Positions 11,774 to 56,447 of a stretch of 64,000 nt of DNA are shown here, in pieces. A program made the translations under genes and the position numbers. How positions within the stretch are numbered: the first letter of the stretch is position 1; every line of letters starts with the position of its first letter. The notes under the pieces were generated by a model. That model was not told the DNA's origin, searched no databases, and saw only the letters and a list, made by a program, of their open reading frames with translations. The stretch covers positions 620,001-684,000 of the forward strand of contig CAVNZM010000010.1 in NCBI GenBank assembly GCA_963693365.1. The letters are read 5' to 3'. This DNA is from Amoebidium appalachense (lineage: Eukaryota; Protista; Ichthyosporea).

Positions 11774-11935
11774 GTCGCACAATCACAACCACAACGATGC
11801 AGACAACCTGGGCACAAAAAAATTCCAGTAGATGGGCAACCACCCGGCCTTGGTGCTCTTGCTGATATCAAAATCATATTAGCAGCTCAAGAAAGCAAAC
11901 TCATTGTTGGCCCTCAACTGTTGCTGAAGACCACT
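11774..11935 (-). ncRNA. Putative structured-RNA family copy A
   Basis: Minus strand: ttcagcaacag, gagggccaac ... tgct/agca hairpin ... gttgcccatc, ctactggaa ... tgtgattgtgcg. Shares upstream ggcat(a/t)atgtaca...agtggtctt with copy C. Confidence 0.5.
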
Positions 11936-12467
11936 ATGCATATGTACATTATGCCTCGGAGTCCCCCCGACCTCCCCCCCCCCCCCCCCCCCCCCCCCCC
12001 CCCCCAAAAAAAAAAAAAAAAGAAAAAAAGAAAAGAAAAGAAAAGAAAATAAAAAATAAAAAACACGCACAAAAAGAAAAACAAAAGAAAAGGCAAATAA
12101 GAAAGAAAAGAGAAAAAAGAGGGGTAAAAGAAAACAAAAGAAAAAGCAGAAAATCTAGGATATCGATATCATGAAAATAATCCACACCGCCCTCTCCCAG
12201 ACCTGCCGCACCCTAGAAAAGTTAAAGGTACGTTTCCACGGAACAGGGGAGTCCTGCAGGCTGGCAGTGTGTGTGTGTGTATGTGTGTGTGTGTGTGTGT
12301 GTGTGTGTGTGTGTGTGTGTGTGTGTGTGTGTGTGTGTGTGTGTGTGTGTGTGTGTGTGTGTGTGTGTGTGTGTGTGTGTGTGTGTGTGTGTGTGTGTGT
12401 GTGTGTGTGTGCGTGTGTGTGTGTGGGGGGGGCTTGGAGGGGGGGGGGGGGGGGAGGGGGAGGGGGA

Positions 12468-12507
12468 AGATCACGAGCAGACCCTACGTAGGGTCTGCTC
12501 TTGATCT
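12468..12507. repeat. Spacerless 40-bp palindrome within a (GT)n/G-rich ... C-rich/(AC)n fold-back
   Basis: agatcacgagcagaccctac|gtagggtctgctcttgatct, one mismatch, centre at 12487/12488. Confidence 0.85.
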
Positions 12508-13453
12508 CCCCCCTCCCCCTCCCCTCCCCTCCCATCCTCCCCCATGTGCACACACACACGCTCGTGATCTCCCCTCTCCCCATCCCCTCCCCTCCAACCC
12601 TTCCCCCCACACACACGCGCACGCACGCACGCACGCAAACACACACACACATGTGCACACACACACACACACACACACACACACATATACCTCTGGAACT
12701 ATGTAGAAATGCAGATTCAGAAGTCACGGCGGGAACGAGCGCGACTTTGCAACAAACCCAAGACAGACATCATAACAGAAGTAGAAGACTTTTTACCACA
12801 CCCTTTACTCAAAAACCCCTCGAGTACCATCATACAAAAGCTCTTCTAAGTGTTCGATACGCTCCAGAATATTACTAGTTTCCATGCAGATCTAGCTAGC
12901 TAGAGAAAGGGCAAGCCACTTCGTCAACTTCGTGGATGGTCGCACCCTGTTCTAATTTGTAACTGTGTTTGGAATTCAGTTCGTGCGACCAATCACTGGT
13001 GGGTGCATCTGTTGTTTCGTTTAAGTTTTATCTCTGGAATGTGGTTTGGATGACGCATCAGTGCGGATGAAGATGCACATGCATGCAAGGCGCTTACTGT
13101 TGTACCATGTTCTTTTTCGATTTCATCTTGCTTCTGGAAAGTAATTTTGTTGGGTATACTTCTTCAGTAGAGAGGGTTTTTGGATTGGAAAAAGAAAAAT
13201 CAGTGTTTTAACATTTCCGCGAAGTCATGATGCTTTGTCGTGTTTTTCACATGTGCGCGCGCATGCATGCGCAGTTTTTATTGTGGAGGAAGGCTTCCGA
13301 GGCTAGGCTATGTCACACATTGTAGTCTCAGTGGCTCCCGTGTTTACACGCCATCTTGTCATTTGCATGAGTTGCACGTGTGCCAACTTGAAGTGTCTAA
13401 TAAAAAAAACCAGCCGCGCCGTGCACGTGAAGGTCCCGTGGCTGGGTGTACGT

Positions 13454-13591
13454 CTACCACCTACTGAGGCGGTGTCTCGTTTCTTTCTTTTTTTTTTTTT
13501 TTTTTTTTTTTTACTTAAAAGGGACCGCCTGAGTAGATCATACTGTAGATGTATAACGTCACACGTGCGGCAACACGTCAGTACGTGTTAG
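13454..13591. mobile_element. MULE-like MITE copy 1 (9-bp TSD)
   Basis: Imperfect ~24-bp TIRs ctaccacctactgaggcggtgtc / cggcaacacgtcagtacgtgttag; TSD ggtgtacgt at 13445-13453 and 13592-13600. Confidence 0.8.
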
Positions 13592-14009
13592 GGTGTACGT
13601 GTAAACTTTACGTGTGCCACACGCAAGTCTTGCAGCACGTGATCAGGCTCCCCCCCTTCGGCCGCTGCATCACTGGAGAGAGCACGTGAGTGACATGAGA
13701 GCTAGGTCATGATCATCAGTTTCAAACTTTTTGTTTTGTTATCACTGCATGTGACTTTGAAAAATTAAGTTTAGATAACACAAGTTACACAAAATATATG
13801 TGGATATATGTACACACACACAGAGTATGCCGGTGTGTGGCGCACGTACGTGGACTTGAAAATTGGAGGTAAGAAATGTTGACACTGCATTCCAGTGATT
13901 CCACACACACACAAAAAATTGATATCCTGTGCTTTATTATTTGCGGGGGGCGGGTTGGTGCAATGGTAAGATGTCTGCGTATCAAGCTCAAAGTCGCAGG
14001 ATCGGTCCT

Positions 14010-14545
14010 GGTTACTTCCGATTTTTGTTCTGCCTCGACGGTTCGGTCTGGCCGCCCCCTACAACTTGAAGCCATCACCCCAGACCACGTCAAGCAGCAC
14101 CACCAATTTGTTATCATCCGGCCGCAAGACATGACGTCATGAACAGCACCGGCCCTCTGACGTCGACGGCGCGCCGCTTGGGCATCCCGGCCCAACGTTC
14201 AAGTGGGAGACCGATCCGAGTCACCGGCCACAGGGTTCGGGTCAGCGTCCTGGTCATGGGGTCTTCCCTTTCAAGTCTTTATGTTTGTGTATGTGTCCCG
14301 GGTCGCTCCCGGCTGGTGCTGTTAAAGTGAGCTGTGCTCACTTCCCCACTAGCGTTGCTGCGGCTAGAACCGTGGGATAAAGGCGTAACTAAAAATAGTG
14401 CCAGTAGGGGTCAATTAGAATCCTGACTTATGAGTGTGCTATACCGTACGATCTGTGTCTACTGTAGGCGGAAGACGGTAGGCTCCCCCGAGGCAGTGCC
14501 TCGCTGGGAGTGAAACGGGATAAATAAATAGATAAATAATTAATT
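14010..14545 (+). mobile_element. Probable transposon remnant (GC-rich, hairpins, TAAA-type tail), possibly DIRS/Ngaro type
   Basis: GC-rich island with hairpins aagtgagc-tgt-gctcactt and ctccc..gaggc-agt-gcctc..gggag, ending in taaataaatagataaataa. The peptide ARRLGIPAQRSSGR only weakly recalls a tyrosine-recombinase C-terminus. Confidence 0.3.
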
Positions 14546-54243: not shown

Positions 54244-54559
54244 CTTGGCATCAATACATAAAGTATTTCTTCAGAGCATTTTCGTTTTTATATTATTGTT
54301 CATTACAGTTCATATCTGGCTGTTATTTTATCAATACGAAAAAAGAAAAAAAAAGATTTAAGTTTGGGTACCAGCCCCAAATAAATCGCCGCTGTTGTTG
54401 ATTTACATTTCAGACTTAGCCCACTGCCCCGATGATACCTACAAAACCCACTTGTGCACTGAGATAGCATTATTATATAACTTTTATCAATTGCAAGATC
54501 ACGGTGAGACTAAAATGCAGCTGTAATACCTAAAAACCACCAAATAAGCACTCCGAATT

Positions 54560-55273
54560 TTAGTTGAGCAAAGCAGCAACCAGGGCAGCAGCAGCAGCAA
54601 CCAGCGTAGGAACAACCTTCCCCCCAACATTAGCTACGTTCTTGCTTGCAGCCGCATGGGCTGAAATTTCCTCCACGCTCTTAGGGTCAGCATACACAAC
54701 ACTGGGCTCAACAGGAACAATTTTGGTGGGCTCAGGAGCAACTGTTACGGTGCTTGTGGGAATGGCGGGCTTTTCCGTTGTTGATGCCGTTCTGGGCTTG
54801 ACGTTTTCCGTGGTGGTAGTGGTGGTGGTGGTGGTGGTGGGTGGATCAACAATAATAGGAACATCGACGTTCTGAGCAATAACAGCGTTGGCACCCATGA
54901 AAGAGGTCTTACCGTATGTGAGGGTAACACCTTCGAGCGTGGTGCACTGAACGCACTCACCGAAGGGAAGAGAAAGGGTTCCCCCTGGGAAGCAAGGGAG
55001 GTCGGTTGGAACGGGAACTGCACACGTGTTGTCGGCGAAGAGGCTAACCTTAACTCCGTCAGCGGAGACGTTAATCTTGGTGTAGCCCTTAATACCGCCC
55101 ATTTCTGCAGTTATGGGAGAGCACCCGCTCGACGTGGTTTCCACGGGAATGCAGAGGTTGGCTTCGGCGCATTCTAGGTCATTCCCTCCGAATTTTTGAG
55201 AGAAACAGACTGAGTTGGTGGCGGCATAGATGGAGGAGGCACCAACAGCGGCAATAACAGCGGACTTGAACAT
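54560..55273 (-). CDS. Secreted, probably GPI-anchored surface protein (Cys-rich head, Thr/Pro-rich stalk), 237 aa
   Basis: Signal peptide MFKSAVIAAVGASSIYA, 8-Cys N-terminal domain, poly-Thr stalk, hydrophobic C-terminus LVAAAAALVAALLN; single exon with upstream TATA. Confidence 0.88.
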   Translation of the reverse strand: MFKSAVIAAVGASSIYAATNSVCFSQKFGGNDLECAEANLCIPVETTSSGCSPITAEMGGIKGYTKINVSADGVKVSLFADNTCAVPVPTDLPCFPGGTLSLPFGECVQCTTLEGVTLTYGKTSFMGANAVIAQNVDVPIIVDPPTTTTTTTTTTENVKPRTASTTEKPAIPTSTVTVAPEPTKIVPVEPSVVYADPKSVEEISAHAAASKNVANVGGKVVPTLVAAAAALVAALLN

Positions 55274-55394
55274 TTTTGCGGATGTTAAAGTGTATTTGTA
55301 CAGTCGGTTTGTTTTTGTGCTGGCGTGGAGTTAGCTGTTTTGCGTGTGTGCGTTGCTGTTGATCGTTCTGGAGAATGAAATGGGTGACGCTTGT

Positions 55395-55425
55395 TTATAT
55401 ACCCCTGCTGCTTGCCCCCGATTGG
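55395..55425 (-). promoter_or_regulatory. TATA box + CCAAT box of the surface-protein gene
   Basis: Minus-strand tatataa at 55395-55401 and ccaat at 55421-25, ~120 nt upstream of the ATG. Confidence 0.55.
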
Positions 55426-56236
55426 TTAGAGTTGGCGATATTGTCAAAACATGATTGGCGCGAATGATCTGTTCTAGAGTAGTACAAAATAAAAGGAAAA
55501 AAAGAAACGAAAGAATGGATGAAGAGGGTAAACCAAGATGAGTGTTGAAATTATGTCATGCTTATAGCTTCTCTCATTCTATCATGTATCATATTCTTTC
55601 AACACCATTGTCAATCGCTCGCACACTAGCTTCGCACACTCACATCCGACTGACGGACGCGGCATACTAGTAGGCGATCATAATGATCACGGCGCAGCTG
55701 CTTGCATGTAGGATAGCCATCTATTTGCCGCGCTCTATTGCGTCCTGGTGATTGGGGCATCTAACGTTGAGCTCCGTCGCTAGATCCGCTAGTCCGCGCC
55801 GAAACGCGTGCACTGCGAAGGCAGTTCTCGACTAGTTAATTAATATTTGAGCTCGGCTGTCACATCGGCATCACGAGACAATGCGCAAAAGCCTAAAACA
55901 CAAACACATGATGCAGCTTTTACTGTACCAACCACGAGAGTGGTGGTGCACGTGGTGCCGCGCACGCGCGGGGGGAGGGGGGGGGGGGGGGGGGGGGGAA
56001 TCTCCGGAGATCTGTGTGTGTGCCGTTCAATGGGGAGGGAGGGGCAGGCTATTATTACGGGAACCGTACCCTTATCGATATCAGAAGGTTATTCCCCCCC
56101 CCCCCCCACCACCACCACCACCACCACCCCGCGCCCGCGCACCCACCCACCCAAAACACAAACACACACACAAACAGATAACTTGTGCACATACATACAC
56201 AGACACAGACACAGACACACACACGCACACAGACAC

Positions 56237-56447
56237 ATGGCACAATTCCCTGCATACTGGAATATGCACGTGATCTCATAAACCAGCACATCTGCCACAC
56301 ATTGCGACCTCGCTGGTATCGCCACTGCAGTATCCTAAGGCTGCGAAGATTGTGATAACATGCTTTTTACTGTGTCTCACGTACAACCAGTTTTTAATCC
56401 AATATATATATTCACAGCATTCAGGGGGAATCGCACCACTGCATGCA
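56237..56447 (-). ncRNA. Putative structured-RNA family copy N
   Basis: Minus strand: tgcgatt ... gcag-ccttaggata-ctgc ... ggtcgca (two U-G wobbles) ... gaattgtgcc. Confidence 0.4.

Follow-up and report, generated by a model that had tools for sequence, protein, structure and literature searches.

A 64,000-nt stretch of the genome of the ichthyosporean Amoebidium appalachense (contig CAVNZM010000010.1, positions 620,001 to 684,000; the window in the following) contains a short element that recurs in its gene-free regions and raises the question whether these repeats are RNA genes and, if so, which strand is read. A sequence-only reading had described them as an RNA-like family that keeps an outer helix and an inner hairpin by compensatory substitutions. 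In our analysis twelve strongly diverged copies proved to be a genuine family in the window. The pairing of their outer helix is under selection, they match no known RNA family and they show neither a Pfam nor a codon signal. The stretch likely encodes a predicted, undescribed family of small structured RNAs. We give about an even chance to the explanation that the copies are independently transcribed genes of the small nuclear RNA (snRNA) type; the strand read would then not be the one proposed before but its complement.

Detection of the copies

Starting from ten hand-picked seeds, iterated nhmmer searches of the window brought in two more copies (E 4.8e-6 and 5e-4) before settling at twelve, which form two clusters at 11.8-23.6 kb and 44.2-51.6 kb. 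A descriptor of motifs and pairing (box, two arms, inner hairpin), composed after the copies had been seen, matched 11 of them and nothing else in the window; only copy I, which nhmmer supports like all others, was missed. In 40 block-shuffled windows the same descriptor found a mean of 0.075 and a maximum of 1 match. When each subfamily was held out of the profile, 9/12 copies were regained at E<0.05. D2 returned at 8.8e-6, K at 0.71 and I at 1.2, and H was not found. Within the window a covariance model built on five left-cluster copies did not regain the other seven, right-hand copies included (best E 4.7). Therefore, the link between the left and the right cluster rests on short motifs in a fixed order.

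About 13 to 14 copies had been counted before. Twelve of these are borne out by nhmmer, eleven of them also by the descriptor; a fourteenth was not located, and the proposed copy N (about 56300-56447) contains the quoted arms without box, G-run or profile match. Overlooked so far was that each of the 12 copies has a run of G at a distance of 16-57 nt from the outer helix, compared with 9-11% of comparable background positions. All 11 descriptor matches carried this run although the descriptor did not require one.

Conserved pairing

The eight outer-helix arms quoted at 50070/50157, 47383/47464, 51448/51513 and 48878/48948 read as quoted, and those of copy D were located at 22129/22037 on the minus strand. 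We measured covariation in a plain MAFFT alignment of 10/12 copies, from which D and I were excluded for length. The nine pairs of the outer helix (8-9 bp) were 88.6% paired with a covariation of 0.267 against 0.130 +/- 0.027, and 0/500 shuffles were as high; slid controls were 35-56% paired. Permutation of the arms among all 12 copies gave P 0.013-0.018 with placement by sequence only and P 0.002-0.003 when the D arm was placed by hand. The inner-helix permutation values were set aside, as pairing had guided the placement there and copies L and M were out of register.

One outer-helix pair occurs as A-U, G-C and U-A with a G-U intermediate, and a second is altered in D. The middle pair of the inner helix is swapped in J and M, which agrees with the earlier description. 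In our reading these compensatory changes represent at least four independent events; kinship among the copies inflates such tests. No third conserved helix emerged, and among the 12 copies no pairing is conserved beyond the outer helix and the inner hairpin.

Selection on pairing had been postulated from the two-sided changes, and both the covariation of the outer helix and the arm permutation argue for it. Such covariation implies selection in the lineages that led to the copies and is not proof that every copy is still functional. In copy I the outer helix is mostly broken, and I, perhaps also B and D2, may be pseudogenes. The pairing tests, together with the absence of a codon signal, also support the notion that the copies form a non-coding family in which a fixed scaffold is combined with a variable insert.

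Comparison with known RNA classes

The sequence-only reading had found no match to known RNA classes, and neither Rfam nor ARAGORN gave a result on the copies. At gathering score Rfam had no match in the window, to known snRNAs or otherwise, and ARAGORN predicted no tRNA gene there. With the threshold relaxed to E<=10, the regions 11.0-24.5 and 41-57 kb gave nothing but repeat-driven Rfam matches; a weak match to a microRNA model spans copy C via its flanking G and C runs.

Several classes were also tried individually. The patterns for U1, A and B boxes, hammerhead, twister, pistol and hepatitis delta virus (HDV)-like ribozymes were run without a positive control. A tRNA, a tRNA-derived element or a vault RNA was rejected with an A box in 0/13, a B box with at most one mismatch in 2/12 and no ARAGORN prediction. 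For Sm-class snRNAs or spliced leader RNAs a loose Sm-like word occurred in 2/12 and a host-like splice donor in 1/12 copies without an Rfam match, and U1 motifs occurred in at most 1/13. Small nucleolar RNAs of the box C/D type were rejected as well (box C with at most one mismatch in 3/12, box D near the end in 0/12, no Rfam match), as were H/ACA RNAs, whose boxes had no conserved position in the flank profile and which gave no Rfam match. The suggestion of a ribozyme-like element did not hold up: core patterns of hammerhead, twister and pistol were found in at most 1/13 copies per strand with no Rfam match at E<=10, and the HDV-like descriptor matched 0/13. A splice-site reading, with the first motif as acceptor and the box as donor, failed on the absence of AG in several copies and of a common frame. 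A pseudoknot between a downstream TGCNRAA word and the inner helix fitted only about half of the copies by eye and was rejected.

Pattern scans outside the window gave 64 metagenome loci, none of which has a 5' arm plus inner hairpin; the best profile E was 0.063 and most loci are one gut-bacterial gene. Viral contigs gave no match and prokaryote genomes one chance match. We found no published description of this 12-copy family in a literature search that was made without the host name and is therefore weak.

The putative upstream box and the layout of the unit

The copies share a box that had been described as TG(T/C)GATTGTGG and regarded as part of the RNA. It makes better sense as a promoter motif upstream on the opposite strand, where it reads (A/T)CCCACAATC(A/G)CA. 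This resembles the upstream sequence element (USE) of other lineages. The USE word of plants is RTCCCACATCG. USE motifs printed for algae and protists include ACCCAYAW, GNCCCAYW and TCCCAWCATC, and the USE is described as bound by SNAPc; in green algae and in humans its TATA-less forms serve polymerase II (PMC8287931). The Dictyostelium element (DUSE) is printed as [AT]CCCA[AT]AA, about 60-63 nt upstream of Dictyostelium non-coding RNAs (PMC3188802). In our copies CCCA(C/T)AA is exact in 6/12 boxes and present with at most one mismatch in 10/12. The Micromonas USE ACCCAYAW (PMC8287931 Table 1) is matched exactly by 3/12 boxes, and 6/12 are one mismatch away from DUSE (PMC3188802). The chance of CCCAHAW in a random 13-mer on either strand is 0.5%.

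From the start of the box to the helix the distance is 56-66 nt in 11/12 copies and 78 nt in L, where a T-rich insert lengthens it. Of five spacers, the one between box and helix varies least in length (coefficient of variation 0.11 versus 0.22-0.41), and between subfamilies it cannot be aligned (mean z 0.5). Little variation in length combined with an unalignable sequence is what a distance between promoter and start site would be expected to show. In 12/12 copies the first purine of the helix follows a pyrimidine. On this strand a TGCNRAA-type word (TGCNRRA or TGCNNAA within 25 nt) lies 3-11 nt after the helix in 10/12 copies compared with a background of 3%, and a C-run follows the helix in 12/12. 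A TATA box is present in 0/12 copies and T4 within 40 nt after the helix in 2/12. A Gibbs search for a further motif common to all 12 remained marginal (information 11.6 versus 10.3-10.9 in controls).

Because the opposite-strand box resembles USE and DUSE and stands ahead of the helix at the tightest spacing in the unit, the strand chosen before is probably backwards. One exact box without the family helices lies at 41939..41949 (+) and was not counted as a member. About 70 nt past it (within 41939-42100, +) comes a sequence that is unrelated to the family and related to 49576-49672 (+). As a single case, a box without helices fits a modular promoter word, and this unit is possibly a second type of small RNA under the same motif.

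Proposed mechanism

On the proposed strand SNAPc would bind the box, and polymerase II would initiate at the first purine of the helix or close to it. We infer this polymerase since a TATA box is absent and a T-run is not regular. The product would be an RNA of 69-120 nt from helix to helix with its ends paired by the outer stem. The TGCNRAA word may act like a 3' box, near which the RNA would be trimmed to 70-130 nt. The paired ends and the conserved hairpin, the probable binding site, would bind a protein, and the variable arm would differ from copy to copy. By analogy with the Dictyostelium Class I RNAs, the most likely role is that of a small ribonucleoprotein scaffold. Recognition of targets by a putative variable-arm guide is possible; for each body, the longest stretch repeated without mismatch at another place in the window measures 10-18 nt, and the longer of these stretches belong to paralogues. 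We regard it as quite doubtful that the copies represent a new class of their own, independent of the Dictyostelium Class I RNAs, in which SNAPc-driven polymerase II RNAs from tandem mini-genes would load a protein by stem and hairpin and use the variable arm as a programmable guide to different targets.

The family would have expanded by local DNA duplication with its external promoter carried along. Local DNA duplication keeps an external promoter, which retroposition would lose. Five of six left-cluster and 6/6 right-cluster copies share their orientation, and the islands of A/C, B/E, J/M and H/I/L show homology over their length (52-69%). Neighbouring islands were co-duplicated with copies (18895-18969 with 23861-23935 and about 21190-21320; 43967-44073 with 45708-45817). 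No direct repeat of at least 8 nt was found between the tested flanks in 12/12 copies, whose true ends are not fixed. Local duplication fits the shared orientation, the duplicated neighbouring islands and flanks and the lack of an 8-nt flank repeat. A second short conserved non-coding module occurs at 18895-18969, 21190-21320 and 23861-23935 (-); two of its occurrences lie past the C-runs of B and E, and one has no copy nearby.

Several observations weigh against snRNA-type genes. The USE match was scored against motifs of other lineages, which may not be those of the host, and about 20 other motif classes had been examined before the likeness came to light. DUSE as printed has 0/12 exact matches, and the USE of Galdieria sulphuraria is matched by 0/12 boxes even with one mismatch allowed. 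The TGCNRAA word has the position of a 3' box and is unlike the mammalian and plant 3' boxes as printed (PMC5079582, PMC9006982). Folding is ambiguous about the strand: non-canonical pairs of the outer helix favour the proposed strand by 8 to 3, which is weak evidence (binomial P about 0.11), and folding energy prefers it in 7/12 copies and the other strand in five. Moreover, the folding z-scores of whole copies are mostly unremarkable, and in 4/12 single-sequence folds on the proposed strand the probability of the outer helix was below 0.3. The invariant homopolymer run is given no role. Finally, the CpG depletion of the copies resembles that of a long interspersed nuclear element (LINE) in the window and not that of its large exons.

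Alternative explanations

The main rival, which we consider unlikely, is that the copies are relics of an old non-autonomous mobile element, similar to a short interspersed nuclear element (SINE), a retrozyme or a Helitron and possibly with an internal snRNA-type promoter. The pairing would then have been selected in master elements, and the copies spread by local duplication afterwards. The copies are indeed locally dense and the subfamilies carry their own flanks. Their observed/expected CpG ratio of 0.62 is close to the 0.57 of the LINE, whereas three exons reach 1.0-1.2 and one 0.74; this contrast between exons and repeats suggests CpG methylation of repeats. The one-sided homopolymer run in 12/12 copies, followed in A, D2 and E by an A-run, could be a tail. 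The usual marks of such elements were not seen: apart from missing flank repeats (such repeats had been named before as a sign of SINEs and miniature inverted-repeat transposable elements, MITEs), a lack that has to be read with the age of the copies in mind, we saw no terminal inverted repeats or common sharp ends, the B box is confined to 2/12 copies at one mismatch, and there is no common hammerhead core. The orientation is clustered instead of random. Within five pairs of recent paralogues the motif positions are 88% identical (162/185) compared with 63% elsewhere, so the motifs are better conserved than their flanks.

Improbable, in our view, is a module acting at the DNA level, either a regulatory element or a replication signal, in which protein sites and a single-stranded DNA fold beside poly(dG:dC) would operate with no discrete RNA. 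The fixed association with a long G/C run, the palindromic TGC..GCA words and the weak, mixed strand signal would suit such a module. On the other hand, the covarying arms lie 53-104 nt apart at variable spacing, which suits a single-stranded fold better than double-stranded sites, and the orientation and spacing of the box are USE-like.

Improbable to a similar degree is the RNA as first suggested, 200-330 nt long, transcribed from the strand that begins with the G-run and including the box and the later motif. Homology does run 100-200 nt past the box within subfamilies, and the outer helix can form on either strand. The later motif follows 6/12 copies (five had been noticed), but when it is taken alone its 9 matches in the window, against 5.8 expected, do not stand out from chance, and between subfamilies the sequence past the box is unalignable. 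Wobble pairs had been said to favour this strand; the outer helix has 3 G-U and 8 A-C pairs there, and the A-C pairs are G-U on the strand we propose. In addition, no promoter or terminator motif is common to the copies on that strand, and the pairing found gives this longer RNA nothing conserved beyond the two helices. We consider this strand probably wrong, as the spacing of the box and its promoter-like word point to the opposite one.

Far-fetched, and already largely refuted, are decayed exons of a cysteine-rich protein family, with motifs readable as G-C-P and C-D-C-G: single frames are open in B and I, and the search pattern matched by chance a metagenome gene (L019:1501-1595, -), which we take to encode a fungal copper-fist-like domain and whose motif spacing differs from that of the copies, yet codon periodicity is absent (P 0.24 overall), seven copy pairs show no synonymous excess, 21/67 indels have a length divisible by three, the frames vary from copy to copy and mostly contain stops, and the best Pfam E among 48 translated frames is 0.12.

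Organization of the individual copies

Strands are given as those of the predicted RNA, opposite to the earlier assignment, and our D2, E, H and I are probably the E, F, G and H of that assignment. In the left cluster, copy A (11776..11928, +) has its USE-like box at 11776-11787, a predicted RNA body of 80 nt at 11834-11913 and TGCTGAA 8 nt after it, followed by the C-run. Copy B (18127..18263, +) has a degenerate box at 18127-18138 and a body of 77 nt at 18187-18263; TGCNRAA is unmatched and the C-run comes 28 nt after the body. In copy C (19272..19468, -) a distal motif at 19454-19468 precedes the box at 19408-19419, and the body of 73 nt (19288-19360) is followed after 9 nt by TGCTAAA. Copy D (21969..22147, +) comprises a box at 21969-21980, a body of 103 nt at 22029-22131 and TGCCGAA 9 nt after it. 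Copy D2 (22681..22840, +) has a degenerate box (22681-22692), a body of 84 nt (22741-22824) and TGCTGGA after 9 nt, and copy E (23439..23588, +) a box at 23439-23450, a body of 69 nt at 23505-23573 and TGCTGAA after 8 nt.

All right-cluster copies lie on the minus strand. Copy H (44174..44430) has its distal motif at 44416-44430, its box at 44318-44329 and a body of 83 nt at 44184-44266. The homologous copy I (45937..46247) has the corresponding parts at 46233-46247, 46128-46139 and 45955-46074 (120 nt). In copy J (47370..47671) they lie at 47657-47671, 47516-47527 and 47382-47471 (90 nt), and in copy M (51432..51733) at 51719-51733, 51567-51578 and 51447-51519 (73 nt); these are the two copies with the swapped inner-helix pair. 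Copy K (48876..49015), with a box at 49004-49015 and a body of 80 nt at 48876-48955, is the most diverged and has a compensatory pair of its own. Copy L (50051..50377) has a distal motif at 50363-50377, a box at 50231-50242 and a body of 96 nt at 50069-50164 with an outer helix of 12 bp.

Genomic surroundings

The eukaryotic sequence of the window contains spliced genes, CA microsatellites and long runs of G and of C. Besides the LINE, it encodes an acyl-CoA synthetase (best matches 31-38% identical), a globin-domain protein, a repeat protein and two short proteins of secreted type, and it includes a broken BTB gene. The LINE (36133-39499, -) has a reverse-transcriptase frame of 1033 aa, ends directly in a CA-type tail and contains an exact internal duplication of 519 nt (37073-37591 = 38981-39499). 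It adjoins the broken BTB/POZ gene at 40186-40830 (+; BTB_2 E 1.6e-13). A MITE-like family at 43077-43616, 46820-47048, 50495-50601 and 53914-54244 combines long terminal inverted repeats with an expandable internal 20-nt palindromic repeat, and has relatives at 80-99% identity in contigs of two sequencing runs (X1 and X2). Over 50026-50925 contigs of three small runs listed under the same species label cover only the MITE at 50492-50602 and not copy L, which carries no weight either way.

Six intron stretches of the genes at 800-8720 (+) and 25330-30746 (-), delimited by eye with some approximate boundaries, were compared for G skew, which in 5/6 was stronger in the first third than in the last third. 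The intron ends could pair and bring the splice sites together. Near-perfect long hairpins occur at 158-255 (98 nt at 92%) and at 12409-12565, the latter with a 32-nt core inside G and C runs.

Relation to known small RNA genes

The predicted genes would work most like those of the Dictyostelium Class I RNAs, by analogy, yet they are not members. Class I RNAs of Dictyostelia are described as intergenic and clustered, with a USE-type motif about 60 nt upstream and a stem that joins the ends (PMC7919456, PMC3188802). Similarly, our copies are rarely identical, form intergenic clusters and have a USE-type motif about 60 nt upstream, a 5' G, a short terminal stem kept by compensatory change and a variable middle. 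As far as these sources describe the class, the copies differ in lacking the CCTTACAGC-type 11-nt motif beside the 5' arm, in length (69-120 versus 42-65 nt), in their stem (8-9 versus 5-6 bp) and in having a conserved inner hairpin, a trailing C-run and no regular T-run. The CCTTACAGC core has no exact match in the window and two one-mismatch matches inside J and M on the other strand. The missing conserved motif and the greater length of the body exclude the copies from Class I.

With SNAPc-dependent type 3 snRNA genes, headed by a USE or proximal sequence element (PSE), the copies share the CCCA(C/T)A(A/T)-type motif at a fixed upstream distance, the TATA-less form and a conserved word shortly past the predicted 3' end (PMC8287931, PMC9841428, PMC5079582, PMC9006982). 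They differ from these genes, as printed there, by bodies without an Rfam match, by the lack of a common Sm site and by a different downstream word. Y RNAs and nematode stem-bulge RNAs are comparable in size, paired ends, variable loop, multi-gene families and upstream promoters (PMC4726728). In contrast to the features given there, a GUG-CAC stem occurs in 4/12 copies, UUAUC in 2/12 and T4 in 2/12, and no bulged C is common to their terminal stems.

The prediction made here is sharp, as it specifies the strand, the start at the first purine of the helix, a size of 70-130 nt and the promoter word. To our knowledge, few groups have structured small RNAs that are lineage-specific and driven by SNAPc; examples are the Dictyostelium Class I RNAs and the nematode stem-bulge RNAs. 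If the proposal is true, a second, unrelated family would share the same gene plan, which would suggest that the duplication of USE-headed mini-genes is a recurrent route to new regulatory RNAs in microbial eukaryotes. The box would then also be a handle for the other small-RNA genes of the organism, including telomerase RNA, via the USE method of PMC8287931.

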